In this document: in pieces, positions 1-53,413 of the stretch
Layout: each line of letters starts with the position of its first letter
Numbering within the stretch: position 1 is the stretch's first letter
Source of the DNA: Promethearchaeota archaeon
GTDB taxonomy: Archaea; Asgardarchaeota; Lokiarchaeia; Sigyniarchaeales; SOKP01
Assembly (NCBI GenBank): GCA_048937405.1
Contig: JBHLNF010000003.1
Span: 96,001 to 160,000, forward strand
Direction of reading: 5' to 3'
Length of the DNA stretch: 64,000 nucleotides
The notes under the pieces: model-generated
Told to the model about the DNA's origin: nothing
The model's database searches: none
Seen by the model: only the letters and a program-made list of their open reading frames with translations
Made by a program: the position numbers and the translations under genes

Positions 1-8
1 ATTCCGGG

Positions 9-15000: not shown

Positions 15001-18000
15001 TAGAGCCAAATTCGATGTACAATAATTACGGAGGTGAGCAAGAGCTTTTCATTAGAAATAATTTAAATAATTATAATCTACTTTCAAGTGATACAACAAG
15101 TACAATAAAATCAAGAAATACGGCTTCATTTGGCACCGATCTAAAAACATTTCAAGAAGCAACAGTGACGGATGTTGCATACGCATTGGTAGACCCAGAA
15201 CAATACATTTCTATAGATCTTATAAATCCATCTACAATATATGGGTTAGAATTAACACATCAACTACCCATCATTGATAGGGATGGAACAAGATCTATTC
15301 AGATATCGTTTGATGCAGCAATATACGACAGTGATTACAACTTTGGTAGTAATGGAGAGCTTCCTATTTCTGTACAAATCTATAATTTCTACAGAAGAAG
15401 ATGGGAATCAATACCGATGGGGGTAACATCGGGCGGTTATTACAATTTAGGTGTATTGGATTACGATAGTTTTTGGACGTATCAAGGTCCCGAAGATACA
15501 AGTGCCTTTCAACCAAAATGGGGTACCACAAGCACAGGTGATATCAACATCATATCGTTTGGATTTCCGTTTCCAACAGAACTTGATAGTCAAGGAAGGG
15601 CATGGTTTGATGATTCTATTACGGATCCGTATAGCGGGTCAAGTTTCTTAATGAAGAATTCGGAAAACCATACTATGAATAACTTTGATATGGATGATTA
15701 TCCATTCAAAGGACTGTTTTATGATAGTAACGGGAATTCCCAAAAATACCAATTTGACAACATCAAAATAAATCCTAAAGATTTTTGGACATCTCCAACA
15801 GACTGGTTCCCAGAAGTTGATCCATCAGAAGCATTTGAAAAAGTTACAGAAGAGAATTTTTATAGCCAATTTGTAAACGATGATAATGAAATCAGAGTAA
15901 GGTTAATAACTGATTCAGAATCTTGTGATGGATACTTATGCCTTGGTGATTTTAACACCTATGTTCATACTGATAGTGATTATTTGAACTACGATGATTT
16001 CTCGGCCAATATCTACAATTCTGGACAGTACAGATACTTAAGAAACATTAATGTATTACCAAAAGATCCTCATCTATTTATAGAAGCATCTGATGGTGAT
16101 TTATATGTTGTCGATTTTGTATCACCGAATATGGTGATAAAGTTAGAGGATGAGGGAGAAACCTGGTCAATAGTTGCTAATAGAAATTACGACATTATCT
16201 CAGCATGGTATGATAGATCTTCAGAGGTGATTTACTTTATTGAGTCTAATAGCACTCAATTCAACTGTTGGTATTTAACCCTTGCATCTGATGCAATCAC
16301 AGAAATGGGAACCCATACAGGTACAAATATTGATGTACGGGATGTGTATAAGTCTGGATCCGATATGTTTGTTCTTACAATTGAAGATGACAGCGGTATG
16401 GATAAAGTGCATGTGTTTAAGTGGGTTAGTCCGAACTGGGTCAATCGGGATATAGAAGTATTTCATGATATAGGTTATATGTCTGAGGTAGTATTTCCTG
16501 GCGGAACATTTCCAACATTTATCGTCGAATCGACGGAAAACATGGTAAAAATCTATACCTTTGATGATACAATCCCAGATTTCAGTCTTGTCGCAGATGT
16601 GGGAAGTAATTTGAAATTACCCCCTATAGAAATGAGGGGGATTGCTGATCAGGACGGTGAAGACATATTTCAGTTCGTGATTTCTGATTTAACAGATACC
16701 TATTATAGATATGTGTATGATTCTGGTACCATTACAGAAGAAGAGGAATTTAATATCATACTGATGTTGGATAGAAATGCAGCGCCTGGAAGTCAAGAAA
16801 AAGGCATACATATATCCGACAGCATTGCGTGGCAAACACAATTAAACGGATTTGTCAATAGCACGGGTATATGTACAGATGGAACATCTGTGGCTATATC
16901 TGAAAATTACATCCTTACCGATAGTGGGAATTTATATAAGTTTATCAGTCCGTTCCTTGAAAGCGTGCATGTAAGTGAGAGAATTGATATGACACCTGAC
17001 GGTATTGAACTGTACGGTAGAAGTGGATTTAATTTTAAAGATACACCGACAATGTATAAGTTTCAAGATAACTTATATCAAGGTTCATGGCAATTAGTTG
17101 GCGGCACTGAGAACTTACTTATAGATTCAGGTATATTAGATGGTGATGCATTTGTAAATAGAGATAACAGAAATACGAATTATGGTGATCTATCTTATGT
17201 GCTAATAGATGGAATCAATCGCGGTTTTATACACCGACAATCTAATTATATTATAGGTAGTTATACCAAAAATTCTGAACTACGGGTATTTTATAATGGT
17301 GAATCTCCTCTAAATCATAGGAGTATATCTATTCCTACAAAGACTTTTGTAGAAGATGAGATAACATGGAATAATCAACCACCGCCGTTGACATTCAACC
17401 GAATTTGGAGTGATATAACCGCTGATCCTAATACATTCGTAATAATAGATATGGGAGTTCCGAGCGAAGCATATATGTTAATAAAAAGTTCTGAAAGTTC
17501 TGGAGGATCTTTATTTTTTTCATCAAAAGATAATACAAGAAATCTCCCTATTCTTACTCATTATCTATACAAATTTCACCAGGATGATGGTCGTATTTAC
17601 ATGCAAAGCAATATAGAAGAACAATTAACTATAAGAAGCCCTGTATATAGCAGTAAAACCCAATTGAAACCTGGAAACATACTTTCTATTGATTGTCAAG
17701 GAACTACTCCGAATGGCATGCACTTGAATCTTTATAACGATGGGCAACTTGTCAAGTCATTTGCAGTGGATGATAACTATAATAGAAAGATTATAAACAT
17801 TTTAATCCCTGAACAACTCATTTTCAACCAATTAGAGTTTACGGGAGCCTTTGTGGAAAATTCGATATTTCAAGTATATGATATTTGGGTAGAAGTGAAA
17901 AACGAGTATAGAGAAAATTTAGAATTTAAGGGATATGATCATGAGATTGTAATAGGACAGCATGTAGATTACGGTCCAATTACATGGCCTCAAGCAAATC

Positions 18001-21000
18001 TTTATGAAAGCATGGATAATATATCCTATGGTAAAGTTGATGATGAAAGATACTGGACGATCCGATCTCAGGATATCGATAACAATCAGCACTTACAAGT
18101 GGATATTTTATTTTTCAATACTATAAATCACGAGGAATTGGATCATATTGAAATCAACTTGGAGGGGTATTGTACCTATGCTCAATGGCTTGAGAATGCA
18201 ATATTTTATTTTATGAACTACAGAACTGGTGTTTATGAAGAAATGATCCCTTCAATCAATGGGGATACACTTACTTTCACAATAACAGATGGCAAGAAAT
18301 TAAACAACAGAAATATTTTGATTCGTATTGATATCACATGGCCTAACTCGGATTCTTATTTTGAATTAAATATCGATCGACTGGTCGCTACAACCTATGA
18401 TAAGTGGAAAGCAGATCATGATGTGTACCGTTTAGTGTACACCCTTGAAAGAAGACCAGATGGCTATGATGATGGACAGGTATGTTTCTCAGTAAATGAT
18501 AATGTAGCGATCAACATACTAGATAATCAATTTTCTCCTTCGGGATTCGGATATAAAGATAAAGTGTATTTCTACTATGATTTTTCAACCAACATGTGGA
18601 ATATATACCTCCAAAAAGAAAATCCTCCCCAAATTCAACCGTTATTATCTCTTTATGATCCCAATCCAGTATTTCGCGCAATTCCCAGGATCGAAACATT
18701 ATATTCTGATACAGATCAGGGTATTAAATTATATTCCATAGAATCTCAGTTCTTGAAGCGCATTTCTTCGGAAGAAGATTTCATCAAGTATAAAGCCTTG
18801 GTTGAATCCTATAAGACAGAAGGGTATGTTGATATGTTAAACATTGATTATCAAGACTTTTTATTTACTCCTGAGAATACATTTACGCAGCTCAGTTCTG
18901 ATATTGATATATTTTATAGCTTTAATGATGCAATGAAAGAGCAAAATGTATACAGTTATGAAATGCTACCTTCATTTATGAATGAGGATCAAGCAGATCT
19001 TTTTGATTATGAGTATGATTCCTTTTTAGAGAAAAATTATATAATAAACGGAGATGAGCAGGCATCAATTGAGGGTTGGTATAACGTCTCGGTGGTCAAT
19101 GATTGCAGTTTTCCAGCATATGCTTGGCTACTTCCAAAGAGTACTGTCTCTAATGATGGATTTGAGATTATGGGAGATGAAACTACTATACATGGGGCGC
19201 TAGATGATACAGGAGACGATAATTCTTATTCAGGAGGCGGAACAAAAATTTACGGGTACAATATGGACACATGTGAACTTGGGTTTGGAACAGGTCATGA
19301 TATTCCGACTGATAGTACGGTAACCGCATTAAAGGTAATTATAAAATGGGCTGGTGCTAGTTATGGGACTATTGTGAGATTTAAAAAAGGTGGGTTTATT
19401 TCATCATGGAAAAGTATCTCATATTATACGTGTTGGGAATATAGATGGTCTTTATTATATTGGGATGACTTGAGTTTAACCGATGTTAATAGTATAACAG
19501 TCGAAATTAAAGCTCAAGATTACACGGGTATATTTATAGATGCTTTATTTGTAGATTATGATTTTTCTGTTCCAGTTTCTAATGATGATGAAGAAAAATT
19601 GGGAGGCTTTGGAAGTCCTCCTGATGATAAAACATATACTGTATCACGTGGAAGAGTCGCCTATAGTAATTATGATACAAATTATCAGCATGTAGCTCCT
19701 GATACTCTTTATACCTTTTATTATTTTGATGATCATTATGATGAGACAATTGCACCAGATTGGTGGAAGGCAACTGGGGATCAAAAAACCGCCTATTTTT
19801 GGGCGCGTAGTTACGGGAAAGATGTTGGTGATCCTGGAGGAGTGCATATGGAAGTTATCCAAGAATTTAGATATTACACTGATTGGACAAGTGGAGATCC
19901 TCTTCCAGATGAAATCGATATAAATTTGAATATGAGGGCTTGGGGTTCTTCTGGATCTGATGATGATAGTCATCATCCTTCCTATCATTATACCAATATA
20001 GAAATTTATAATTACAGGTTAAGTGAATGGCAACATTTCAAAAACGTTCCTCTAAGTTCTAGCTCTGGACCTTTCTCGTGGATCAATATCAATATAAAAC
20101 CCTATACTGTGTATGGTGGATATGATGCATATTTGTATCGTCCTGAAGATTATTTAACATCGAGTGGAGAATTTAAATTTCGCATATACTCCAAGTCACA
20201 TTCATGGGGTCTATATAGGACTAGTACAAATGGGGTAGAGTTAGACTATTTATCTGTAAAGGTGTCTTATCTTCCGAAATCGGAGATACATTTCACATTT
20301 AATGATCCAGATATTACAGACGGGGCAAACGATTTCATTCTTTTATTTGAAGGAAAGACTACCCAAGGAACATATAGTGGAGTAGATCCTTGGACAGCAC
20401 AATTACACATCGGTGATAGAGTAGTATCATTTGGTAACCAAGAGGTCACGATACTTGAAGAAGACTCTTTCTTAGTAAGAAACGTAGATGATGTCTATAT
20501 TACTTTTGCTGCTGATAAACGAATAGGGGAACCTGACCGTACGATAATTCTCGATCAGTTACAGTTGTTTTTACTCAACGAGACGCGAATAAAAGTTCAA
20601 AATGATTATGAGATATTTACAGGACCGCACCTTTCTCACAGTAATATGGAATTAGTTGGCGGTAATTGGGGCAATGAACCGTTCCTCGGCAATAATACGA
20701 TACATTATACCGCCCATAAATCACTGAAAACTCCCGTATTCGGAAGATCAGATGATGATGTGTATGTAAATCTCGAGCTCGAGGATTTGAAGTTTCAGTT
20801 TGAGGTGTTCCCACCAGAGGAATATCCGAATTTTCCAACAAATGAACCCAATGTTGAAGGAAATTATGATGACTATGATATATATTCACTGGATTATGAA
20901 ACAAGTAGGTTCAAGAACACGGCATTGGATGATATTCAAATCCCATTGATATCTCCTTTTGAACTGAATATAGGAAATTTAGATATAACGGATATTTATA

Positions 21001-24000
21001 ATCTAGAACTTAAGTTGGCGCTTGATGTAGATATCGAACTTGAAAACCGCGCATATGATAGCATCTGGAGTTGGAGATGTAGATTAGTAATGTATAATTA
21101 TACTTCTGGCAAGTGGCAGGATATCGATGCTGTAATCAGGGCGAGACATCTTTTTGAAGACAGGGATGTGTGGTCTCCAGAAGATTTTTCTGATCATCCC
21201 CTTGCCTATATTCAAAATACAACGCAAAATAGATTTTTACCAATAAAAAACTCAAATGACATAGAACTGAAAAATCCATTCAGATTGTTAAATCTGAATT
21301 CAGATGTGATACAAGACGGTATTATGAAGCTTGCATTTATTTCGTACATACTTCCTGGTGATTTGTGTATCGATTCATGGGGATACTTCAGGTATGAACG
21401 CAGCGATCCGAACATTCCTATTAGGGTTTCTCAATCATTAGATATAATGGATTGTATATTCATGTGGGATACAAAAGAAACACTGTACGCAGAAACTTCT
21501 GTAGTGACATCTTTAGATACCTACAACAATAGAGTAAACCTAAGTGAAATAAGTAATCTAGGAGAAATCTTAACATTAACGGGAGTAGTATATCAAGACG
21601 GATCGATACAACGATATCCAATTTTTGATTATATTATAAATGATGATAATGAACTTCGATTTATTTCTTCTTTCATTAAAGAAGAATTGATAAACGAAAT
21701 AGAAGTAGAATATGTTCCTGATGTAGTACTTATACATAATCCTTCTGGTCTTCCGCAGTATGATGGAATGTGGTATATGCCGAATTCTTCTCTTGTCGGT
21801 GCTTATAATTTCAGTTCCCCATTTTTCGTAAGCGAGTTATGGGTCAATACTACATTATACAATACATGGATGGGTACTGAAGATGTAGGATATGTTGTGG
21901 ATTCCAATGACTACGGTATGTATGTTAAATTTGATAATGATCCTCATCCTGATTCCAATGTACACGGATCTATAAGATATGAAAATATCAATGAAACCTC
22001 ACTAGTTTCAACTTTTACGGCAGGAGATGAATTATTGTATAAGTATGATGTGTTGGAAAGTGATCAGGAGATCATTGATGGTATATTGCATGTAAATATG
22101 AAAAGCGGTCTTGATGCTCTCTATTTAGATAGAAAAGTGCTTTCTGAAAGTTATGAACTTGTATTTCATCTATGGTGTATTGATAGCATGGGAAACAGGG
22201 ATTTTATTACGGTGTTTTCACATGATATAAATAAATATGACTTAGGAGTTCAAGATCGGGTTCTTGACATCACTATAGGAGATCTTAATTTATCACCAAC
22301 AGAATTGGCATTATTGAGCAAGTCATTAACAGAAGGGTATGATTTAATTGTTGAGGTAAATTCTACTATGGCTGGATGCGAAGTCATAGGAGCCACTTTT
22401 CAAGGGAATTATATTCAGGAGTTAACAGATGTAGATTTTAAAGTGAAAGCTCATGAAGCCGAACTGCATATCAATAATACGGTTGTAGAAGTTCCATATG
22501 TTGAAGAGTATCATAATAATGCGATGTTAACAAAAGTTGCGCCATCTGTTTTCATGTTTGATGCACTCAGGTATGATACTGAGTTTTACATTACGGATCT
22601 ACGTACGGATTCAGAATCGATTCCAGAAGATGAGTATATACTCAATATAGATCAAAATATAATTATATTACTCGGGGTTGATTGGAGTGATTATTCTGGA
22701 TTGCTTTTTGCTGATGTGGTATATAAATTATTTGAATGGCACGACGGTTCTGTAATAACACTGGAACCCATTACGTTAACCTTTCAAGGTGATTTCATTA
22801 ACAATATTGTGGATAATTTGTGGCTCGGTATTGAGTTTGACCCAAACTGGATACCAGGATATGAGATAACACAAATAAACGAGCAATCTGGTAAACGAGT
22901 TATCACTGCCAAAGAGAACGGAGCCGAATACATCGAATTTTACTTCTATAATTATATAGATGAAGTATGGGAAAACACTAAATTCGTTACTTATGATGGT
23001 ACATCATTTAATCAATTTGAATATGTTATTGATAGGAACTTTATCTTATTTGAGAAGTTCTTCAACCGTACAGATGTCCAAAACGAATTTGAAATGCAAA
23101 TGATGATAGGCCTTGATGAAGATCTTAATCAGTACCAATACATTTCTTCAACAACAAGATTTAAAATAAATGATATACAAACAATGATTTTCTACTCTCC
23201 ATCAAATGAAGGCCGAGTTGTAAGTCCAGAAGTACACTTTGATGTTGATTTAACTGAATATTTTGATAAGAATATAGACATCGATGAAATTGAACTTTCA
23301 TTAGAATATTTCAGTGAGTTAAATATGAACCAAACGATGATTTTTGCTGAACATGCATTGATTGAGGAAGGATATCGCTTTTACATCCAAAATGAGTATT
23401 TAGAATTTGAGGAATTTATATTAGATGATAATAAAGTACGCATATCCAAAGAAGTGTTAGATGCTAACTTGTTCTATGATATTAACGCTCAGAAGTATTT
23501 ACTACGGTGTAAATTGGAATATTTCTGGGATTGTTTCTTCATCATTAATTTTGCAACAGGTAATAAACTGGAAGTCGTTGCTGAATTGACATTAGATAAA
23601 TATGATCTTAGTGTATTTTACACGAAGTATGAGACGACAAGGATATCAGCAGATGAGTATGATATACCCTTTGATATGGCCGCTATTGATGCACCGAATT
23701 ATATTGAAAATGTTGTTGAAGGACATTATCCAGCGACCTACAGTTTTGAAAATGAAGTTGGCGAAACTGATACAAATATTGAGTGGATCGATGATGTTTA
23801 TTCTGGAGCTCATGCAGAAATAATTAATAGTCATCAAGGTCATAATGCAGTTTTGGAATTTAATGTCGATGCTGGTTATCAATATGCAAAAATAAACGAT
23901 TTAAACCTAGATCAAGATTCTGGAACAGTTGAATTTTGGCATCTCTATGACACAGAGACCTTTCAATGGCAATTTAGAGACTTTAGTGGCAATTATTTAT

Positions 24001-27000
24001 TCCAGATTAGAATTACTCCTACCCATATTACATTCTACTATGACGGAACTACTTCATATATTATTGATACTACCACCGAATGGGTACATATCAGAAGTGA
24101 CTTTGATTGCGCGAGTGATTCAGTAAGTTTTTATGTAAATGATTTTCTTATTGTTGACAATCAACCACTGGATAATAATAATTCATTAAATCAGGTGATT
24201 ATTCAAACTAATTCTAATTCAGCAAGCCGATGTTATGTTGACGCAATAGGTTATTCTTGGGATATCAATTATATAATTAATGATAATAAACATGAAGATA
24301 CAAAAGTAGCAAAACTTCTTGCAAATGATCAAGAAATTGATATAGGAGTGCTTGGTGGATTTCTTAGGAATATTGATTCACGACAGAGATTAATGTTAAG
24401 GCAAAAACTCTTCTATAATTTTACAGAAAGTGAACTTGACAGTTTTCAAATATTATTGGATCAAAAATATTCAGATGTACAACTAAGATTCATGAATCCA
24501 ATTGGTTGGTTAGAATACCCTATTAATGATCGATTTGGTAAATATAGCACCTCTATTTCAGTTCCGATCTATCCTGATGATTTTAATTTAATTAACGGAT
24601 TATTAACGAGGCAAGGAAGTCTTTTGGGTATCAATAACGATTATCATACAATTGTATCAGAATTATTACGAACCGAGTATCTAAAATTAAGCGAAATGCC
24701 AATAGCAGGTGACTTTAATATCACTTTGAACTGGGGAGATCTTGAGTATATTAATGGGGATTTTGCATCATTTGCTTCCGAAATTTCAGGTTCGTATTAT
24801 AGCAGTGATTATAAAATTCCTAACCAAGTACAATTCTCATTTACTGAAGGTGTGTGGAACTACTATGATAAAGGAGCTCTCAACTATGATGATAATCAGA
24901 ACTCAATGATTACCGCAACATCAAGTAATAGTAGTTCAGAATACGAAATTCCAGTATACGGACATTATCCTGCTACCTATAGTTTCGAAAATGAGATACC
25001 AGAAACTTCGGGAACAGATATAGGTTTTGTAGATCAATCGAGTGGAAATGTAGAGATTATCGATAATTTTAACAATCATTATCATGTTATTGAAGTAAAT
25101 GATACTGACTCATCTGGACATTATTTCAGACATAATATTCCGACAGCGCTATCTGAAGGGTCTATAGAATTTTGGATATGCGCATCCGATGTTACTCAAG
25201 AAGTAGAGATCAAACTTATGAATACAATCACAACAACTGTTTGTAGAATTCATATTTTAGCTGATAAATTTCAAGCATTTTATAATTCTCAATGGAATGA
25301 TCTAACCACCATTCCTTATGATAACACATGGTATCATATAAGAATAGATTGGGAGCAAATTAATAATAAATTTTCTGTTTTTATAGATGGTGTAGAGGAG
25401 GTTTCATATAAAACAGTTGAGGATAACGGTAATGTGAAATCATTCCAAATGATGAGTCAAACCACAGATCAAAACTATTTAATATATTTTGATGCATACG
25501 GATGCCCTGAAGAAGATTTAAGCTACACTCTCGGCGATAATAAAAAGGAAAGCGGTAACTTTAATGTAATTACAGGAAATCTCATCTATGGTGATCTTGC
25601 CGATATAGATAGCCAGGTATCAACTATATCAGTTACAGATCCAGGTCTTCCAATGATACAAGGGTGGGATTATGTACGAGATATTACATTAAGTCCACCA
25701 ACCCCAGAAGATAACTATCAGGTAAAGGTGCAATTAGATAGCTCAAACTTTGATTATTCTAAAGTAAAATCAGGTGGTTCTGATTTACGATTTTATGCTA
25801 GTGGCGTATTGTTGAATTATTGGATAGAGTCATGGGATATAACAGGATATTCTCTTATATGGGTAAATGTCCCAGATGCAGGAACGTCTGTGATTAACAT
25901 GTATTACGGAAATTCTGCAGCAGTGGCAATGAGCAACGGGTCGGCGACATTTCCTTTTTTTGATGATTTTGAAGGAACAAGTTATGATAACAATATATGG
26001 TATGAAGTATATGATACTACTGGAGAAATTAAGGAAAGATATGTAAATGTATCTGATAGTATAGCTGAATTATATATAGAACTTGACCCAGATGATTGGG
26101 GTGGACAATATACTCCAGAGATGCGGTGGGAAAGAAGTGCTGTTGGATGGCTTGATTTCTGGTCAACAGGGGGGACTTATGGAAATAGGTATCCGAATAG
26201 TCTTTGTTTCCTTGAAGACGATACCATGACAAGGAGGGATGGTGGAGAGATTGAAACAACTAGCAATGTTGCAGCTTCTGAATGGGTTTGGACTATTAAA
26301 GAGGTTGTTTGGATCAATTCTTCATCAGTCAAGTTTTATGAAAATGATACTTTTCTATCAGAGCACACAAATTCTAACGCTATACCAATTTCTGAAACAG
26401 TACCGATACAATTTTATCTCGGCTGTGGATCCTATCCAAACGGTTGGGATCATATGCTAGGTTTAGAGTCTATTGATAACACTCTCGGTGCTGAAGGTAG
26501 AGCTCTAAGAAGTTTTACTTTAAATGAGTGGAATGAAGCTACTGATGACGATATTCTCATATGTCTAATTGATTGGGTCTTTATTTATAATATTAATGAA
26601 ACGGAGTCAGTCGCTAGCATAGGATCTGAGTCCTTACAGGAATATTCTGTAAATGCAGAAATTGAGTGGTCTGTTGATGATCTAAATCTTATATCAATGG
26701 ATTATTTAAGTTTTGAATATGATGATATTCCAGAGGGGTGGAATTATTTAGGGACTCATTTTGATGTACAGGCTCAAGATGGGCGTCCAATGGGAATTAC
26801 CTGGGATGGTACACATTTTTGGGTTGTTGGAGATGGTAATAGTGAAGTTTATCAATACACAACTGCGGGAGTGTATTCCGGTACTCATTTTGATGTAGGA
26901 AGTCAAGCTAATTACCCAGTTGGAATCACTTGGGACGGAACATATTTCTGGATTGTATGTACATCAAATGATGAAGTCTATCAATACACAGCTGCGGGAG

Positions 27001-30000
27001 TGTATACTGGTACTCATTTTGATGTAGCAGGTCAAGATACGAGTTTAGGTGATATTATATGGGATGGAACTTATTTATGGGTTTTAGGATTTGTTAACCA
27101 AGAAGTATATCAATATACGACCGCAGGGGTGTATACCGGAGTTCATTTTGATGTTACAGGTGATAGTGGAATCACATGGGACGGTATCAATTTCTGGGTC
27201 CTTTCAGATAGTAATGATGAAGTTTATCAATATACAGCTACGGGAGTGTATACTGGTGTTCATTTTGATGTAGGAAGTCAAGGAAATCAGATAATAGGTA
27301 TTACATGGGATGGAGGAAATTTATGGGTTATGCATGGAGAAGGACCAGGAGGAGGTAATCCAGAAGTTTACAAATATATATTCTTTGAATTTAATTTTGA
27401 TATATGGAATTATAATGCTGAAGACTGGCAGGATATTTCAAATGAAACTAGTCCATTTGCACTGACTACCGATCATTATAATAGCAGCAATACTTTAAAG
27501 GTTCGTTATATAGCTTATTCTGGTAGTCCTTTTAATATCACCATTGACCAATTACACATTGATTATACACAAGCTACTGATTATATGGTTGATGCGGTAG
27601 CAGAAATAACCATTCAGGATGATGTGATGTATGAATATCAACAAACAAGTGCTAAACAACCAGCAAATACACACTTATGGTGGGAACTTGGTGATGGTGT
27701 ATTTTATCTTGTAGATTCAACCGATCAGTCCAAATTGTATGTGACATTGGATGAAGGGAAGACCTGGGCTCAGGTAGATGTCGATCCTTCGGATACTTCA
27801 GGAGATAGTAAATCGCGAGATCATAAGATTCATTCTGCTTGGCATGATAGAATAAATAAGATTATCTGGTTTTTGGATTGTGATAATGGTGGTACTGCTG
27901 ATAATTTTGATGTTTGGAAATTAGATTATACAGTAAGTAAAACGAGTCCAACTGTAACGGAAGTAGGGACTTCAAGTGGGGCAGATGCAAATAGTGTGTA
28001 TGCTTATGATATTTTTATGATTGGTAGTAATGTGTTTGTTATAAATTTGGAAGAACGTTCTTATACTCAAACTATGGTAATTTGGGACGTAGATACTGCT
28101 CCTTTTACTGAGAAAGATACAGATACAAGCGAAGGTGTAAATAGAAACACATATATGTTTGGTGCAGTCGTAGGAAACATTTATTATAATTGCTTCGAAG
28201 TCGATAGTTTTAAAGTATTTGAATATAATGACTCTGCAACCACAATCTCATGGACATCAGAAGCATTATATACTCCCCCTTCTAACAGTAATTTAAAAGC
28301 AATGACGTATGATGGTTCAGATGTAATTTATATGATTGGAGATAGATGGGTGGTTGATCGATATGTAAACTATTTACTTTCTTATTCAATTTCAGGAGGT
28401 TCATGGACGGTAGGAGGAGAAGAAACTAATGTTGCATTAATGCTTAATAGAAATGCAGAAGGGTGTGCAAAAGCATATCATCTCGAAAATGGAACTATAT
28501 ATTATATCACCACAAACGGTCTTGAAGTAATGTATGACGGTAGTTCTTATTTTGATGATGATGTTATCGCAATTACTGATACTTATATTATGACTGATAG
28601 TGATATTATTTACAAACTTATCGGGCAAAATGATATAAATATTGAATCTGTAGACTATCTATTTTTTGACCATATTGCATCTGTAGGCACCAGCTTTTTT
28701 GTTTGGAATTATACTGCAGGTTCATGGCAAAATATTTCCAGTGAGTCAAGTCCTTATTCTCTTAAAACCGATCATTATGATGGAAATTACACTATACTTG
28801 TGCGATATCTCACAGGAGTATCTATCAGTTCATTTGATTTGGATATTGATCAATTAAAAGTAAATTACACGAAACTCGCTAATCTCTATGATGTACATGC
28901 TGAGGTGGTGTGGGATATTACGGAAGTTATTCAATCAGTGGAATATTTGATGTACTCGCATAAAACTTCAAGGGATGTAAACTGTACAATGGAAATTTGG
29001 GACTTTACCTCTCAGGAATGGGATCTGGTAAACAGCTCTATCAACTCTATTGGATTTTTCAACACATCCTTTGATTTGAGCGATCCTCGATACCGTAATG
29101 CAACCAATCATGTGAAAATTCGGTATACAACTAAGGGGCTTCCTACAGAATTTAATCTTCTCATTGATAGATTGCGGGTGGATTACACCTCAATAGATGA
29201 GATTTATGGTATTGATGTTGAAGTTACATGGAATGTCTCAGATGAACTTTTCTATTCATTAGATTTCTTGAAATATTCCTATAGAACTAATGAGTCAATT
29301 GATGTAGATCTTGATATTTATAACTACACCTCGCAATCATGGGTAGGTATAGAAAGTGTAATAAACTCAGAGGTATTTAATGATGAATCATTTACGCTCA
29401 ATAACGATTTCTACAATGAAACTAATCATGTGAAGGTAAGATTCCAGACAGCTGAATCTATTGACCAACCGTTTGAATTACTCATTGATCGATTACGCAC
29501 TGATTACACGAAATACAATGAGTGGAGTAGTTACATTTCTGATACTCAATACTTCTCCTTTATTGGTGATAACGAAGTTACGAATGTATCAATGTATTTC
29601 ATTAATATTACTCAGGAAAAAGAGTTTATTGGAGACATGGTACAAAATTTTGTAAATCCAACGCGGTTTGAATATACATGGACAAACATCCAACAAGCAA
29701 CAGGCGCTCAAGATGGTGATTTTGTGGATGTAATATTTGAAGTAACCGATATATTTGACAATACTAATGATATTCAATATCAATTCATTGTTGATTTCAC
29801 TGAGCCAATACCTGTCATGACTATTGGAAACGGCACACAAAGTTTTGAGGGAAATGAACAGGCTACAGTGTTAACAGAGATAAATTTCGATAGCGACGAA
29901 ATTACAGAAAGCGGAGTGTATTACGCTACTTATGATTTCAGAGATGAAAATGTTGAAACCAGCGGTGTTAGTATAGGTTATGTAGATTCTATTAGCGGCA

Positions 30001-33000
30001 CTGGCATTACGGAAATTCAACCATCAAAAAAAAATCATAACAACGTGATGTATATGAAGGCAGATGATTCAGTGTATTTGATCGTGAATCATGATATTAC
30101 AGAAACTAATAGTGGAACATTTGAATGCTGGCAATATCCAGTAAAAGATGATGTAGATTGGAGTAATGAAATTTGGTTCCAGGACTCTTCTTCAAAAGAA
30201 GGGTATATTATCATGAATGCAGCAGGGAAATATTACTGGCGTAATGATACAATCTCGATATTACTTGCTTCTGGTGTAAGTAATCAGTGGAATCATATAA
30301 AGGTAACCTGGTTTAACAATGATGTTGAAGTATGGATTAATGGAATATTCACTGATGGATTAACGCTTGGATCGGGGCAGACCAACGTGAGTAAAATAAG
30401 ATTTGTGCAATATGATGATGAAGGAGAGTGTTGGTATGATGCTATTGGATTTTCGTGGGATATCTCATCTCACGGTGGATTAGGATATGAACTAGGATAT
30501 AATGTGAATCCTTATGATTTGGAATCATTGTTATTACAAGGATTTTCTTCAACCTACTTCGATTACGGTGAATACTGTAAGTTATCAGATATTGATGGTC
30601 ATCGTGATGTTATTGAATTATATGCTCCAATTGATCAATATCTCTACATGGCAGATAATTTTAATTCGATGGCAGAAGATGGTATTCAATTAGAGTGGTG
30701 GTGGAGAAAAGATGCAACAGGACAGAGCGAAGTGCAAGTGCACGGTGATTTTCTATCACTGTATTTGGTAGCAACTGCAACTGGTATGTATTATTACCAC
30801 GATGGAACTCAGTCTAATATTGTGATGACGAATTTCCAAGAAGATCAGTGGTACAAACACAAGGTGATTGTAAACTTTTCAACTAATTCGTTTGATTGGT
30901 ATATTAACGATAACTTAGTTGAATCTGGATGTGATTTCTACAATGATGCCTCATACATCGATAGGGTAATGTATCATACTTCTAGTGGATATACACATTT
31001 TGATCTCAACCTGAAAAAAGAAATTGCGTGGTACAAATTTGACAGAGGAACGGGTTCGATTGCATATGATCATGCCGTTAATAAGTTTCCAGGTAATCTT
31101 ACCAACATGCATGAATCTACGTGGGAACCAGGAAAGATTAATGGGGCACTGCATTTTGATGGTATTGAAGATTATGTCGATATTCCAGATGATATCATTA
31201 ACGGTTCAACAGACTTCACGATAGCATTATGGTTTAAAACGGATGGAACAGATTTGATACGAGATAGGACATTGATCGGCAAGCGTGATAATGATACAGG
31301 ATACAATGGATACTACGGAGAATTTGAAATTAGATTAACTAAGGATGGAAATCTTCGGTTTTATGTGTGGAATGACGGGTATCAATTTGATTTATTGAGT
31401 GAATCAGTCTATAATGACGATCAATGGCACTATGTGGTGGCAATTAGGGATGGAAAGAACGGTTATCTATATGTCGATGATATATTGGTTGACCAAGGAA
31501 GTGGTCCAGTCAAGCTATTGAATCCTAATCTGGCTATGAGCATCGGAACCGAGCTACGTAATGTTGAATGGGATCCAGTGAACGGATGGCCTCATTTCTT
31601 TAAGGGATATATTGATGATGTAAGAATTTATGATGTTGCTCTATATGAAGATGATATTAAATGGCTATTTAACAAAGGGGACGGAAGAGATACGTCATTA
31701 AACTTATCTCCCAAAGAAGAATATAGGATTATAAATCTTGAGAACAGTTTTACTTCAGAGTGGAAGCCCTTCAACTCAATATATATTTCTACTCTGGGTG
31801 ATTTGGAAGTTGATTATGGCGAGACATTACCAAATTATTTCATGATTGAGTATCGTACAACGGATATCGCAGATAATATGGTTGCAATTTCAACATACAA
31901 TTCACACTACCAGAATATCAACTTTACACATGAAGTAGATATGTCGCTAGTCAAAAGTGTAATAGATCTCAACAGCAATATAACATCAGATCGAGTCATT
32001 ATATTTAAAGATGTAGGTCAATTTAATGGAGCCCCTGTCGAGGTGTTCATTAACGGATTTGAATACGGTACAGCAGTTTCAAACGGCACTCATTATGTTG
32101 TTTTGTTCGGTCAGGAAAATAATGAGGACACGCTTCTTGCATATTCAAAATCACTGATAAGCGATTACATACATTCAACTATCAATCCGCTATCTCACGT
32201 TAGCTGGGAGTTTTCAAATGATGATCTATTTGGTGTTATTCAACATGTGCTTGTCGATCAACCAATCACAATAGTAAATCCACTTACTTATAATGCAACA
32301 GCGATAATGCAGTTAGATACTATTTATGATCAAACATTTAGGATGGCAAAATATGTCAGACCTGGTAAAGAGGCATATTATTGCAATGCTACTACAGGTG
32401 AGTTATTATATCTTGATCTGGGTTATGATTATATGATTTTACAGGATGGGACGGTTAAATTTCCAGATGGGTCATTTATCTTTGATTTATATGAGAACCA
32501 TTCAAGTGAAGTACAGGACGGTTTTATTTATTTCGAGTACAGTGCCTCTGATGTATATGATCAACTAACGCTCTCCAATGCTGAAGGTTTGTTCATTAAT
32601 TTTACCATGCCAGATTTATATTACAATCACACCACAATTGATACACTTACTGTTCGATTAAACGACTTTTCTGGAAAGTCATTTGCAAAAATATTTTACG
32701 ACATCGATCTTCGAGAATTTTTCCAAGAGGATGTAAAAAGCAAATATGAACAAACGATATTCGGTCTGAGTAAAATGATGACAATACCGTTGTACATCGA
32801 TTTCAGAGAATTTATTCTTTCAAACACTGACGCAATGTTTGACATGAGTCTAATAGAATCTATTTCATTTGAAATTGTTGATTCTGCTCGATGGCCAGGA
32901 TCCTTCATGAAAACGTACGAAGAAGAAGGATATACCGTGTTGAATCTACCGTATCAGAGAGTTGGAATACAGGATATTAAGTTGTATAATTTAATCAGTG

Positions 33001-36000
33001 ATAATGTAGATGATCAAGACGGGTTTGTGACCTCAGAAATAGAAGTACGATGTCCAGAGTATCATGACATATTTGCAACAGACACATTTAATATTGCTAA
33101 GATGAATGTAGAATTTACAGATGTTTCGGTAATATGTGACGGAGTGAATATCAATTACTATAACAGATCAATAGATGTAGAATTTTCTGATAGAATTGAA
33201 TTGTATATGCATTATGATTCAACATCTGGTGTAATTCCGTTGTATGACTTGGTTAATTTACCAATATATTTAGTGAATGCAAGTAATGTAGATCAGGCAT
33301 TCTCCTTTGACAGTCTTCATCATATTACAAAAGAAGATGTGAATGCTCCCGATGGATTTTATTCCGATTATTATTATGCAAAATTTGCCGTTCCGAAAGA
33401 ACTTGGAGAGTATAACTTAACCTTTAATTCACTAGGTACTCCTATGCATAATCTTATCATCGGTGGAATATCAGAGGTCGCAATGTGGAGTTTTGGTGAG
33501 AATGATACGGCATTCGACTTGATCGGTGACAAAGACGGTATGATTGTCGGAGCAACACAGGTCGATGGAAAGGTTGGTCGTGCATTATATTTCGAAAATT
33601 CAAATGATGATCATGTTGAAATACAGCCAGTGTTTGATGATTACCAAGACTATTTCACATTTGCTGCTTGGGTAAATGCAGAAAGTTTATCTACATATCA
33701 TTCATTATTCGGAGAGTATACTGGACAATATGCAAGAAATCACATTTATATCGGTACGAATGGTGAAGTCGTATTTGATCACAACCTACCGGCTGGAGGA
33801 GAAGCGACAAGTATCAACAATTTGATTACAATAGGATCGTGGATACATGTAGCCGTGGTGAAAGATAATGATACTGTGTACTTTTATAAGAACGGCGAGC
33901 AATTTGGTAGCGGTGTATCTCACGCTGAGAAGTATACATCAGGGAACCCCACAATATCAGGATTAGGAGGTAGGTATGACGGGGGGTGGGATTATGGGTT
34001 TGACGGAACACTTGATGACATACGACTTTATAGTAGATCTCTATCTGAAGATCATATAAAGTTCTTGTATCATAATGGCTATGGTAGATCTCAGCGATTA
34101 AATACACTAGTGCAATTTTCAGTAAACGTTACTCAAGAATCATTAAATGAGGAGCCGATCTATCTTGAAAATGATAGATATGAACTTGAATACGGAGAAT
34201 CATTAATACTTAGTGGAGCAGTGTTAGATAACGATATATATATAATAGAGGATGAAGTGCACGAATACAACTATCAGGAAGCATTAGGAGACGGAACCAC
34301 AACTAGCACCACAACTCACACACTTGATATCATCGCACCGTTCGGAGATGACTCATTCATTGATAAAAATGAATTTGCTATCTATTATATATCAGATACA
34401 TTAGAAAAACTTCCGTTGTACGTGAAAATGGATGGAAAGCTATTCATTGATACAGAAATTATATCTATCGAAAAGCTTCCAGAAATAGTGTATGTTAACG
34501 ATAAATATGTCCTTAATATACACTGGGAAACAAATCCAATAACAGGTTGTCATATTAATTATAATACTATGTTGTTGATTTCATATAAAATGATTAGAGG
34601 ACATCCAATTACCCCGATGTCGTACAGCTCTGAAGATGCATACGGACATGATAAGAAAGAAAATTTACATGAGATACCATTTGCTCGATATGATATAATT
34701 ACCGATAGTTGGATAACAAAAGATGACTATACAGAATCATTCTTTATTGATAAACAATTTATTGTAGAAGGAAATGTTACGGTTAATTCTGTGCTTATTG
34801 AAGGTCCGACCTATTTTGATGGTCAAGAGATCAAACTGGGTATTATTGGAATTGATAATGTGTATGTGAATAAGAGTAACGCTGATGTGTATGTACAACT
34901 TGATCCTCAAAACTATACATGGTTTATAGATGCAAGTGGCAGACTTAATGTTACATACTTGAATTTTGAAACTGGTGATGTGTGGTTTGTTGAGTACTGC
35001 TCTTATTATCCTTTGGAATTATCACACTCCTTGAAAAAATCATCATCTTACTTAACTAGTATTATGATTCATTCGAGTAATGACACTTCTCAATATCATA
35101 CTTTTACAACTAGTGAATATATAAATGCAACAGATGGATATGCTATTTACTTATTAGATCTGTATAACACGGCATTCTCTCTGGGTTTTGATATCGGTGA
35201 TGAAATAGTAGTTAAGTACCACGCCCCATTAACGAGAAAGGTTGATCTTTCATGTCAAGTACTGTTATTATTACAGGATAACAATAGCAATTATAGACCG
35301 ATTGATATGATACAAATTGACAGTTATGGGATGTTTAAATATGATCAACAATTTACCAATGATGGTCCTCTTTCATTACCGTTAAATAGTAAAACACTAG
35401 TGAATTTGAAGCTTGCCTATTTACCGCTACAGGTATATAATACTTCAGCCGGCGAATTAGTGAATATTAGTTATTCAGATCCGACTGTAGGAAGTATTTA
35501 TCCATATAAATCTAGTAGTAAATGGGTAAAAAGTTTTAAAATCATGACGATCCAAGATCAAGTGAAATTAGAGTTCGTCGATTTTGAGTTACAGCCAATA
35601 GTAGTGAACCAAAAATTCATAGAAGAACGTGATTATAAGTTCACCTATAACCCATTATATGCTTTAGAAGAAGGGGAAGAATATACAGCATTAAATCTTG
35701 ATGTAATGACACGAGAGGACTACACCTTTACCTTTAAATTGACAAATTCAGAGGATAAGCCTATTAATAATTCTATAGTATGGTTACATATTGGATTTAT
35801 GCCGAAGAGTGTCTCCGGATTCATTGACGACGGTCTAGAAATAGAGGAATTAGGAGGAATTTCACCGTATTATGAAATTTTAGGCACTGAAATAGGTACA
35901 ACAAAGGGACCCGGAATGGGTCCGAATAATATGTTCGGAAGACCATTAACATATGAAGTTGAATATAAGTCATTGAACAGAAGTGCCTACGGTCCATATA

Positions 36001-39000
36001 TATGGACATTTGGTACGACAGATGTATTTGGCAAGGTGTCGTTTGATCTATCGTTTGATAATGAATATTTATCTGACTTTTCTACAATATTTGGAACGGT
36101 CTCGGGAATAAAATCATTAGACGATATTTCACTTTATATAAGAGCATTTACAACAGAGTTCAGATGGCAAGATTTCATCATTCATTCACCCGAGCAGTAT
36201 ATCTGTTCACAAAACGGAATCATCTTTAATTCTAGTAGCAATATTTTACGTGAATATGATCTAATGCAACTCAAGTTCCAAGACAGTACATATGCAGAAG
36301 GGGTTATTGAGTTGCACAAAAAGGATATTGCATTAGGGTGTTCTGATCGTATTTCCTATGATCTTCCCTATACTGATGAGTTTCAAAGTGCCCAACTTGA
36401 AAATCTTCGCTTATTTGTATACGTTACAGAGGCAAATGTAATTGGAGGTAACATCGGCACGACAGTTGAATCATTAGATGGGCTTCATGAGGTACTTGAG
36501 TTGGAACCAACTCCTGTAAATGTACTCGCACAAAATTACAGCTATTATGCTTTACTTCAGATACTCGATCCTGCAGGAAACAATGTAAAGCAAGCCTACT
36601 TGCCAATACAACCAAGCGGTGATGGTGGATATATAGAAATTGCAAATTGGACTATGGAAGAAATTCTAAACACGGCGGGACCTGGTGTTTCAACGATACA
36701 AATTCAAGTTCAAGAAACAGAGTATTATAAGGCTTCTCCTGTAGTACGAGTCCCCCTAGAAATTAGACCCCCCAACTGGCTTCGTTTTGGGGAGAAAAAT
36801 ATGCAGATCGATCTGATTGATCCATTTATCGCCTCTTGGGGTTCTGCATTTGATGGAAGTGGGTTGATGCCATTTGAGAGCAATTATCCGCATCTGATTG
36901 GCACACTGTGGATTGATCCACACTTTGAAAACGGAGAAGAACTTTCTATAGAAGATTATATTGAGATAGGATTGACCTGCACCTCCTTTAATGAATCTGG
37001 AGGGATAAGCGGTGTCACTGATTTACGAGAACCCATCATGTTTCGTCCAGGTAATTATGAAGGATTCTTAACGTTTGATGTGGGATTAGGTCCAGAAGAT
37101 GCATTTTTGATGGGAACCGAGTGCATGCTGAATTTAACATTCGATATTGATTATATTGAACAAGAGGTATATAACGAAAGTAGAGATATCAATATCTATC
37201 TGCTTGATCTCCGAATGGTCAATAATCCATCAGCGAATAACCCAAATATTATCTGGTCACTATATGAAGATAAATTCAAAGATATCGCATTTCCAGTAAA
37301 AAATGAGTTATTAAGTATATCAACAGAAACTGGAATACTTTTATTGGGTGGAATTTCTGGTACAGAAGCATACGGAGTTGAAGAGTACTTCCTCTATGAT
37401 CCAGATCAGGTTACCTATGCAACGGATCCTGAAAATCCACAATTATCATTACTTGGGTTAGATAACGTAGAACCTCTTGCTGTTATAGGCACAAATGGTA
37501 CCGAAACAAATTATATTTTTGTAAAAAACGTTGATTGGCAAGAAGGAACGACTATGACCGAGATCGAATTTCTGGGAAATGATGTTCCAAATAACGATTC
37601 AGAATTCAAGGTGATCTATCAGTATAACTTTGATTTCGGTTCGAACTATTTCGGAAACGTAACACTTGGAGCTTCAAACAATGTTAGTAAGAGTTATATA
37701 GAATTTGATTTAACTGGAGGATTTTTACCAAGTAGTGAAGACAGTAGATCTTCCATGTTTGTAAGGTATTTTGACAACTTTGTTGGTAATAATATTGATA
37801 AAAATTTCAATTTAACCTATACTATTGAAAATGCAGATCTATCGGATTTTGTCATTTATAATGAAGAGGAATTGAACGCTTCATTTACAGGAGTCATAAA
37901 GAAGATTGACAACGGAGCGTTACAAATTGAACTTACTGATATTCCTGCTAATGGTCAAAAATTCAACGTGTCATATGGCATCCGATCTCAGTACGAATTA
38001 AGCTACGGCTTCCAGAAATTTAATAAGTCTTACAGTGATTCGGTTCGGTTGATTCACAATGATGAAGAGCACCAGGATTCAATATTAGATACTCAGGAAA
38101 TTCCATTGATCACTACCAAATTGAATGAACCTTCCTTATATGTGTCAATGGACCCCTCGGATGAAGAAACTATTCTAGAATTATATAACCTACTTATAGC
38201 CTATAATCCTGAATTAAACTTTACTATAGTACTTGATCCGATAGTTGTAAATCAGATAGAAGCATTTAACAATGATTTTAATACACTTAGTGTCGAGTTT
38301 TATTATGTAAAACATGATATGGGAGTCTATTATTCAGATTATATTGAAATTCCGTTGAATTATAGTGAATTTGTATTAGATCTTGAAGAAGATGGTAGTT
38401 ATCGGATTAATTATAATAAAGATCTGTTTGGACTATATTCTGATTTTGGAGTTTCGTCAATGGATATATATATTTCAATTTCACAGGTGAGCGAGGGATG
38501 TAATTTCATTCCATATGTAATCATTGAAGATTTTGATTATCTCAGTGATGATCATTTTATAGAAATGTATGATAGAATACCAAGAGACAGTAATAATAAT
38601 ATAGATGTAAAGGCAGTCATTGGAACTCCTCATTATTTCCAAATATTTACCGAGCCTTTACGAACAAGTACCTTGTATAATGTATCATCTCCTTTCGATC
38701 TTTTAGAAAACTCTATAGTAACTGTCGGATTGACTGATCTACCACATTCTAGCTTAGTCTCACTGAATAATTATGAGTTTTCTTATTTAGGATCATCAAC
38801 ACCAATTGTTGTTAATGATGATGATTTCAACATGATTACTAACCTTGGATTATTTACTAATACTTATAATATTGAAGACTCTATTGTTCAGGATGGATTT
38901 GTCGATCTTTATTATGGTTCAGGAACAGAAGTGGACGGGTCAAAAGAGTATGATATTAAGATGAACATGTGGCCGTTGAACGATGTTATTGACTATACAT

Positions 39001-52364: not shown

Positions 52365-53222
52365 ATGCTATTTGTAATTTTCAACATATTATCAAGAGAA
52401 ATTTACTTCAAATCATATTTTGAAAGTCATTACATAGAAGATAATATATCAAAAATTATTAAGATGTTTAACAATCGAGTATATTTAAAAAATGAGGAAA
52501 AATACCAATTAGCTTTTAAAATTAGGGAAAGTGTTGCTTTTGGAGGAATAAGAGCCTATAATGGTGGTAGCTACAACGGTCGTGATATTATTCCATGCAA
52601 ACAAATAAATCTACAGGAAATATTAAATTTTATACATGAGTTATCAGAAATTATTACTGAAGAAGAAATTAATCTCTTAACTACAAATCAATTTAAATTG
52701 ACAAAAGAAATAATTTTACAAAGATTAAATATTAAAAATATTCATAATAAATCTAAAATATTAATTGTTGGAGGGGGAGGTGCAGGGGTAAGTTCCATAA
52801 TGTTTATGAATTACGGTCTTACATTAACAAATAATCTTGGAACAATAATTTATCATGTAACAACAAATATAAATGTGAAGAATGAAAAACTCATGTTTTT
52901 TTTTACTCCATATAGATCTGATTTATATCATCATCAAATTAGTCTTTTTCCTGCATTTTCAAGTATTATTTATGTTGAAGATAGTACAAGAAAAGAAGTT
53001 TTTAATGAATATAATTACATTTTAAAAAAAATAAAAGAAGAAAAGAAAAGGAAAAAAGAAAAACGATTTTTAATTATTGCAAATAAACAAGATTTACCAG
53101 GAGCAATGGAGCCAGAGAAAATCGAAGAAATTACAGGGATAACAACAGTCGGCTTTTCTGCCATTGATCCTGATGCTCCTAAACATTTAGAAAAAATAAT
53201 TTCAGATTTTTTGAAAAAATAG
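52365..53222 (+). CDS. Arf/Rag-like small GTPase-fold protein with an N-terminal extension (possibly longin-like); degenerate G1/G3 (pseudo-GTPase)
   Basis: KILIVGGGGAGVSSI (no Lys), no DxxG, YVEDST, intact ANKQD (G4) and FSAI (G5); 60 bp after the giant gene. Confidence 0.8.
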   Translation: MLFVIFNILSREIYFKSYFESHYIEDNISKIIKMFNNRVYLKNEEKYQLAFKIRESVAFGGIRAYNGGSYNGRDIIPCKQINLQEILNFIHELSEIITEEEINLLTTNQFKLTKEIILQRLNIKNIHNKSKILIVGGGGAGVSSIMFMNYGLTLTNNLGTIIYHVTTNINVKNEKLMFFFTPYRSDLYHHQISLFPAFSSIIYVEDSTRKEVFNEYNYILKKIKEEKKRKKEKRFLIIANKQDLPGAMEPEKIEEITGITTVGFSAIDPDAPKHLEKIISDFLKK

Positions 53223-53224
53223 AC

Positions 53225-53266
53225 ACTTTTTATAAATTTTTATTTTATGTATTTTTATGTATTTTT
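53225..53266 (+). terminator. Probable archaeal oligo-T terminator
   Basis: Several T-tracts, including a repeated TTTTATGTAT unit, immediately after the stop codon. Confidence 0.45.
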
Positions 53267-53413
53267 AAATATTCTTGATTACTATTCAAACAAAAATTGC
53301 AATAATTAAAATTCTTTATAATCAGTCTAATGAGTGATTAAATCATAACGACAATAAACTATCCTCCCAAGAAAATATTAGAAAAGAAGGATTATGTATA
53401 CATTATACTATGG

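Follow-up and report, generated by a model that had tools for sequence, protein, structure and literature searches.

We analysed a 64,000-nucleotide stretch of DNA from Promethearchaeota archaeon (contig JBHLNF010000003.1, positions 96,001 to 160,000; hereafter the window), in which a single open reading frame (ORF) occupies positions 3..52304. On the contig, this ORF starts 3,186 codons upstream of the window, giving a protein of 20,619 residues that has a cluster of hydrophobic, transmembrane (TM) helices at residues 449–677 of the full protein and is hydrophilic in the rest. Within the ORF (frame 3), between positions 24579 and 29516, four short pieces (N-pieces) are followed in one frame by a module containing the domain DUF2341 and then by exactly four pieces of about 100 residues each (C-pieces). 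We regard it as probable that this region is one domain nested inside itself four times, forming a passenger-bearing side arm of a giant surface protein. All features given below lie on the plus strand, and the residue numbers of the pieces and passengers refer to the window's translation unless the full protein is named.

The N-piece is a motif of about 25 residues with the family consensus DFTFTKGSLTSYGDLETIDNNYTTI. For independent tests, the hidden Markov models (HMMs) of the N- and C-pieces (N-HMM and C-HMM) were built without any row from the giant protein. The outermost N-piece, N0 (24579..24659, residues 8193–8219), which has about three short strands and the motif DFNLINGLL..GSLLGINNDYHTI, scored 11.3 with the N-HMM. 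The second, N1 (24711..24779, residues 8237–8259), which can be aligned with the N-N rows of homologues, scored 10.5, and the third, N2 (24834..24914, residues 8278–8304), scored 9.7. The innermost, N3 (25557..25628, residues 8519–8542), scored 2.7 in the whole protein and 13.9 as an isolated segment, and by eye it matches the consensus at 11 of 25 residues. Two more N sites belong to a second, shallower nest described below (17.7 and −1.1). All six sites fall within the seven best N-HMM matches in the 17,433 residues searched, and the best score in the shuffled giant protein was −1.9. On these sequence grounds we regard N0–N2 as solid, and N3 as marginal by HMM and convincing by eye, which bears out the original prediction, made from the sequence alone, that four N-halves stand in a row here. 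The pieces are of unequal size rather than halves, since the N-piece has about three to four strands and the C-piece about seven. As many as three N-glycosylation sequons (NFT, NGT, NYT) stand in the N-piece consensus in many homologues; the window's four N-pieces are nearly devoid of them, with NIT in N1 only.

The C-piece is a unit of about 100 residues marked by the motifs Y.V.AE..W, L.YS.KT, IWNY..W..I, F.L, KVRY and F.L.IDQLRVDYT. The independent C-HMM located four bodies, at residues 9130–9189, 9543–9623, 9629–9729 and 9735–9836, with independent E-values (iE) of 2e-13, 3e-14, 5e-25 and 2e-27 in chain order, in agreement with the exactly four C-halves that had been predicted after DUF2341. 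The two inner C-pieces are split by passengers. C3, the innermost, consists of its first two strands (C3a, 26640..26726, residues 8880–8908; C-HMM positions 3–30) and the remainder (C3b, 27387..27578, residues 9129–9192; positions 35–101), which is the first of the four bodies. C2, at the third level, consists of its first strand (C2a, 27582..27650, residues 9194–9216), whose motif YMVDAVAEITIQ fits the Y.V.AE..W start of intact copies, and the remainder (C2b, 28629..28877, residues 9543–9625; positions 13–101), which is the second. C1 (28881..29195, residues 9627–9731) and the outermost C0 (29199..29516, residues 9733–9838) are intact and account for the two strongest matches. Searches of Pfam gave no carbohydrate-binding module (CBM) match on the N/C domain at E ≤ 0.01 or at E ≤ 1, and when the unsplit domain was run as a profile against the sequences of the PDB, the best E was 0.21, to unrelated proteins. 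The family PF14741 (GH114_assoc) matched homologous C-pieces at 20.8–21.6 bits, below its gathering cut-off of 22 bits, and was matched in three of 11 unsplit domains (best E 2e-5); in Pfam it gave no match for the window's own C-piece copies.

The module between N3 and C3a, which we call the tip (25638..26636, residues 8546–8878), contains DUF2341 (PF10102) at residues 8592–8667 (nucleotides 25776–26003), matched at 1e-21 and 73.6–77.6 bits over profile positions 2–82 of 84. With 77.6 bits against a Pfam cut-off of 23.4, the DUF2341 tip that had been predicted is confirmed. Three passengers accompany it. Passenger 1, between N2 and N3 (24960..25547), is a cassette of about 196 residues, of the ConA-like (LamG/sialidase-CBM) type, that starts with GHYPATYSFEN. 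Such cassettes occur at least four times in the giant protein (8631–9227, 12363–12962, 23721–24299 and 24960–25547), and phmmer relates passenger 1 to the copy at residue 2877 at 2.8e-16. The copy at 24960 has no Pfam match, and the copy at 8631 reaches 19.2 bits with a Pfam cut-off of 27.6. Homologous cassettes in two metagenomic relatives, P0076 and P0114, exceed the Pfam cut-offs (Laminin_G_3 and Sialidase-like_CBM; 34.1, 28.9 and 29.0 bits), and phmmer links the window's cassettes to other cassettes of the family at 1e-16 to 1e-41. By sequence, then, passenger 1 probably belongs to a recurrent ConA-like family, consistent with the lectin-like cassette originally read at this position. Among the relatives, no other passenger is found as often between N- and C-pieces as the ConA-like cassette, which has the look of a mobile protein module whose termini are adjacent.

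Passenger 2 (26727..27386) lies between strands 2 and 3 of C3 and consists of five repeats of about 42 residues (GTHFDV..ITWDGT.FWV..EVYQYT.AGVY); it had been described as a five-repeat propeller. The five repeats are there, but the propeller is a lead only: passenger 2 has no Pfam match, and an Atlas feature search pointed to propeller blades of the SMP-30/NHL/Glu_cyclase type (0.94). Passenger 3 (27651..28628), an insert of about 326 residues between strands 1 and 2 of C2, had likewise been read as an Asp-box propeller. It holds one canonical Asp-box (TLDEGKTW) and has no Pfam match; the Atlas feature search gave DUF6242_C (0.91) and, at rank 25, BNR, again as leads only.

If the N- and C-pieces are two parts of one domain, their numbers should match in relatives. 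A C-piece profile search of 1.84 billion representatives returned 113 metagenomic proteins, the majority of Asgard or marine-sediment origin; the named ones derive from Promethearchaeota metagenome-assembled genomes (MAGs) and from metagenomes of marine sediment and the subsurface. In these homologues, iterated HMM searches placed about 200 C-pieces and about 130 N-pieces, the latter at the expected positions ahead of the C-runs. The length of an N-run equalled that of the following C-run in 73 of 94 clusters, with 47.3 expected from shuffling (Spearman 0.71; p ≤ 5e-5, a generous value given that the clusters are mutually related). Fifty-seven clusters were 1+1 (N count plus C count), 12 were 2+2, two were 3+3 and one, this window, was 4+4. 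All but one of the 21 mismatched clusters were short of N-pieces, misses that are to be expected because the motif has only 25 residues. With a relaxed threshold or direct reading, P0004 became 7+7, P0007 6+6 and P0107 3+3, and P0087, P0075 and P0024 became 2+2. The same two HMMs match all four levels in the window and two to seven levels in homologues. The commonest unit of the family is N-[passenger]-C, often with a ConA-like cassette precisely between the pieces, and at least 11 proteins contain an unsplit N+C domain. Besides these, the alanine/threonine-rich residues 40–200 of P0099 contain three segments, ahead of three C-pieces, that escape the N-HMM and resemble strongly diverged N-pieces (G..QGs.sa..l.sdDGssd); because of such segments, the family may, judging by sequence, be wider than the counts show.

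We then turned to structure. A passenger-free homologue, P0072:1202-1480, with the order N N C C, was folded with AlphaFold2 (AF2), because MAFFT, when aligning the nests of the window itself, placed the N-N, C-C and cassette rows on top of the inserted cassette. The cluster of P0072 includes a Promethearchaeota MAG protein, and its alignment had 49 collinear rows, 13 of them with both N- and C-pieces. The model had a mean predicted local distance difference test score (pLDDT) of 92.0 and a predicted template modelling score (pTM) of 0.75; the N-pieces, at pLDDT 88–95, formed three short beta strands each. It was compared by VIA-align with 48,161 PDB representatives plus Foldseek's top 1000 chains. 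All top rows were restricted to model residues 37–174, the inner domain, which comprises the N0–N1 linker strand, the inner N-piece and the first C-piece. CBM16, CBM29, CBM4, CBM22 and CBM11 modules and a phage baseplate domain aligned to this segment with Z of 10–13 over 120–136 residues and a root-mean-square deviation (rmsd) of 2.3–3.3. For 2zew_A, Z was 10.6 (128 of 146 residues, rmsd 3.0), for 1gwk, 1gui and 4xun it was about 10, and for 9eui_D it was 13.2 (132 residues, rmsd 2.3). The alignments begin at model residue 36–42, not 76. Since the matches extend over the inner N-piece as well as the first C-piece, the former is integral to the jelly-roll; in the model, these two pieces together make one complete CBM-type beta-jelly-roll, and the inner pair is nested.

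The model further suggests that the outer pair packs in the same way, N0 on C0, because the inner site is occupied, N0 is predicted as confidently as N1, the strand pattern is equal, and the DSSP strands 31–42 and 163–185 run continuously from the outer into the inner domain. This continuity fits a hairpin that is extended by the terminal strands of its guest, which suggests a stiff junction. From the same secondary-structure continuity we infer that the arm would be rod- or tree-like in shape.

The order of pairing was addressed by co-divergence, that is, by the resemblance of each cluster's N- and C-pieces to the pieces of the 57 unambiguous 1+1 units. Of 13 control proteins, each having two N..C units apart from one another, 12 gave the true pairing. 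Pairing of the inner N-piece with the first C-piece, as expected for nesting, was favoured in 11 of 11 scorable 2+2 clusters. The nested order ranked first of six in P0066, and in P0004 the odd outermost N-piece resembles the last C-piece (r 0.76); P0114 was ambiguous, with the parallel order slightly favoured. In the window's 4+4 cluster the nested order scored +0.40 and the parallel order −0.52 (rank 21 of 24). We also predicted a complex of N0–N1 (residues 8186–8272) with C1–C0 (residues 9621–9840), each supplied as an alignment. The resulting ipSAE values of 0.32, 0.19 and 0.31 (mark 0.32; controls 0.00–0.01) were counted neither way. Taken with the count match up to 7+7, the unsplit N+C forms and the jelly-roll of the homologue model, the preference for nested over parallel pairing supports the predicted order N0-N1-N2-N3-[tip]-C3-C2-C1-C0.

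The reading that we favour for the window region would work as follows. The domain would be a CBM-type beta-jelly-roll of about 135 residues, without a Pfam family, whose first three to four strands (the N-piece) and last seven or so (the C-piece, Y.V.AE..W ... IWNY..W..I ... KVRY ... F.L.IDQLRVDYT) meet at an insertion-tolerant hairpin. A second copy of the domain would sit within the hairpin of the first, a third within that of the second and a fourth within that of the third, so that the chain runs N0 N1 N2 N3, tip, C3 C2 C1 C0. The innermost hairpin would house DUF2341, and other loops would bear the ConA-like cassette, the five-repeat module and the Asp-box module. With chain entry and exit both at the base, the whole arm would be a lateral branch of the membrane-anchored extracellular protein of about 20,600 residues, and the strands predicted to continue through the junctions would stiffen the stack. 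The fold class, the passengers and the extracellular setting suggest a putative adhesion arm, or one that binds glycans or other ligands.

Several observations weigh against this reading. Even in the homologue model the outer N0–C0 packing is deduced rather than matched to a known fold, and in the window each N-piece would pack on its nested partner by extension from that model and from co-divergence, not from contacts in the window's own chain. The window's co-divergence signal is itself weak, the nested order being only the sixth of 24. N3 (2.7) and the outer N-piece of the second nest (−1.1) are marginal by the independent HMM, and whole-genome E-values are weak, at 0.16–0.5 for N0–N2, with N3 absent at E ≤ 1. 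C-only arrays exist in some proteins, mostly fragments (P0003, P0005, P0074), and the six recent N-units and C-units of P0004 are not mirror images of each other (nested r −0.01, rank 336 of 720). No orthologue of the whole arm was found in 40 related genomes, and sugar binding by the arm is putative.

Some of these points would suit other explanations. The C-pieces, with about seven predicted strands, might be self-sufficient tandem beta-sandwich domains, and the N-pieces short repeats of a different element, for instance a stack of hairpins or a solenoid, that merely lies ahead of them; the C-only tandem arrays in P0003, P0005 and P0074, the tight 42-residue spacing of the N-pieces in P0004 and the independent amplification of the N and C arrays in that protein all fit such an arrangement. 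However, it gives no reason why N and C counts should be equal from 1 to 7. The leading C-only arrays, moreover, are mostly in truncated proteins that begin inside a passenger ahead of the C-run, and the CBM-like fold of the AF2 model includes the inner N-piece, the alignments starting well before model residue 76. We therefore judge self-sufficient C-pieces to be very unlikely. The shortness of the motif and the weak whole-genome E-values just given prompt another thought: the N-segments might resemble the motif by chance, the giant protein being of low complexity and rich in N, D and T, and only the four C-domains and their inserts would be real. It is hard to reconcile with six sites within the seven best matches, with a best shuffled score of only −1.9, and with about 130 homologous copies at the expected places ahead of C-runs, and we give it almost no credence.

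The order does not follow from equal counts, and N- and C-pieces could also pair one-to-one without nesting, whether in parallel (N0 with the first C-piece), in a shifted register or swapped between molecules. The slight parallel preference of P0114, the repeat similarities of P0004, which fit neither order, and the five permutations that outscore the nested one in the window would be compatible with this. Yet the innermost N-piece directly adjoins its C-piece in the unsplit and compact forms, the AF2 model joins the inner N-piece to the first C-piece, and nesting is favoured by all 11 scorable 2+2 clusters, by P0066 and by the outermost N- and C-piece of P0004, in a test whose controls were recovered in 12 of 13 proteins; the parallel order in particular ranks near the bottom in the window. 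Non-nested pairing thus seems to us improbable, if a little less so than C-pieces that fold by themselves, and self-nesting of a two-part jelly-roll remains the reading on which we proceed.

How did such nests grow? Nesting depth, which the original prediction proposed to compare among orthologues, varies from one to seven levels among relatives; no orthologue of the arm as a whole was found in the 40 related genomes or among proteins of 2898–5000 residues. Three fragments, P0003, P0006 and P0002, match the stretch from C2b through C1 and C0 to 140 residues beyond, in the same order and at 50–52% identity. In these fragments the counterparts of C3 and C2 are continuous, and at least five to seven C-pieces are present; therefore, depth and passengers vary between lineages. 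The deepest example, residues 100–1245 of P0004 (a JGI metagenome protein), is a seven-level nest in which six N-units with an exact 42-residue period, 76–98% identical, accompany six C-units. Mirror analysis of these six recent repeats supported no pairing order. Because the similarities among the N-units and among the C-units fail to mirror each other, separate tandem growth rather than insertion of whole domains is indicated; by sequence, the stubs and bodies of P0004 seem to have been amplified separately, by tandem duplication, and to have reached equal numbers. This pattern fits selection against unpaired pieces together with interchangeable halves. A more general idea, which we offer as possible rather than probable, is that this CBM-like family is a dedicated recursive branching module of Asgard giant surface proteins. 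Its hairpin would take up foreign modules or its own copies, to at least seven levels, and give a stiff stalk; interchangeable N-stubs and C-bodies would be amplified separately, their numbers kept equal by selection, making a length-adjustable, register-shifting "zipper" without described precedent.

Other copies occur in the giant protein itself. The second, shallower nest (8268..9620, residues 2756–3206), identified by the N-HMM, the C-HMM and direct reading, has the order N N C C: N at residue 2756, N at residue 2798, a C-piece at 2827–2876 and 3076–3110, and a C-piece at 3111–3206. Its first C-piece is split by a ConA-like cassette (residues 2877–3075), and its inner N-piece, the best N-HMM match (17.7), adjoins its C-piece in an unsplit junction. 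Folding of residues 2750–3210 by AF2 without an alignment gave a pLDDT of 31.5. The apparently unsplit relative that had been proposed at 17930–18405 was not confirmed: hhalign gave a probability of 13%, over the last 26 columns only, and an N-HMM match there was rejected as support because the segment was among the HMM seeds and the argument would be circular. At the very start of the window, positions 72–131 (residues 24–43) give a further N-HMM match (score 9.0, GNLINFDDMKAIDSSYSTLT) with no C-piece of the same family detectable nearby, and this may be a stub of a different nested jelly-roll family.

The genes 3′ of the giant gene encode Arf/Ras-like GTPases, both ATP-citrate lyase subunits and isocitrate dehydrogenase. 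Two Arf/Ras-like small GTPase genes lie directly 3′ of it, at 52365–54289, and the second has a winged-helix-like match at its N-terminus. The host is a Loki-type Asgard archaeon (Promethearchaeota), because the neighbouring isocitrate dehydrogenase is 93–96% identical to genes of Asgard MAGs; these are mostly labelled Promethearchaeota or Promethearchaeia, and the top match is labelled Odinarchaeota. In the 4.47-Mb host genome, the C-HMM found the C-piece domain in one other protein only, a 1753-residue product of an ORF starting at 26240 on contig C8 (iE 8e-5 and 3e-4). Within the host's order the domain was found in 26 of 121 genomes, all of the host's own family, and only in giant ORFs, the longest of which has 14,557 residues.

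Asgard giant surface proteins may mediate contact with partner cells, and for those that are huge and unannotated the present family suggests a rule for reading them: count the stubs, expect an equal number of bodies and seek the payload between. That stubs and bodies seem to have multiplied separately and yet in balanced numbers bears on how such architectures evolve, and the new domain family, whose insertion-tolerant hairpin has been mapped, is a possible engineering scaffold for displaying several modules. If the same self-nesting trick is used by a sugar-binding-type fold outside the cell, it may be a general route to branched, tree-like proteins made of a single chain. We found nothing specific in the literature on self-insertion or nested insertion in Asgard giant proteins, or on DUF2341 in archaea.

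Among the folds that resemble the inner domain of the homologue model, the type B CBMs (CBM16, CBM29, CBM4, CBM22 and CBM11) share the beta-jelly-roll of the complete N+C domain, and the roughly 10–11 strands and ~140 residues of the CBM fold are found in the homologue model, not in the window copy. The N+C domain, however, is only 3–13% identical to CBMs and matches no Pfam or CAZy-type family, and known CBMs are contiguous and appended in tandem, whereas the Asgard domain would be nested. GH114_assoc, an N-terminal domain associated with glycosyl hydrolase 114, shows the weak C-piece matches in homologues described above and is carried by Atlas structural neighbours, but those matches are below the cut-off, and no split or nested form of GH114_assoc is known. 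Structurally, the inner domain is matched best by a baseplate protein of Staphylococcus phage phi812 (PDB 9eui chain D, 9euf chain H). That match covers 229 chain residues, so the baseplate domain seems to bear an insert too; it is, though, a component of a phage baseplate, 13% identical and without a sign of self-nesting.

Domain insertion is usually single-level and takes place between unrelated families. To our knowledge, the main documented case of deep self-nesting so far is that of the sandwich-barrel hybrid motif (SBHM) domains in RNA polymerase Si3. In Si3, part of the cyanobacterial and plastid β′ subunit (RpoC2), SBHM domains are recursively nested in the order A1-B1-C-B2-A2, and a six-level SBHM nest has been reported for Prochlorococcus RpoC2 (PMC13114784). 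On our reading, the Asgard arm shares with Si3 a small beta domain family that has inserted into itself repeatedly, giving an elongated appendage with chain entry and exit at its base. As in Si3, the host domain in the Asgard family is interrupted, its N-part lying before the guest and its C-part after it (N-[passenger]-C, N N C C), and the guest belongs to the family of its host over several levels. The two differ in fold, SBHM in Si3 and a CBM-type jelly-roll in the Asgard arm, and in place, since Si3 is cytoplasmic and part of the trigger loop of an enzyme, whereas the arm is extracellular and part of a giant surface protein. The Asgard split is also very uneven (about 25 versus about 100 residues), its depth ranges from one to seven levels, and it carries unrelated passengers. 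Recursive self-insertion itself is thus already known from Si3; what would be new here is another fold, an extracellular site and a greater depth.

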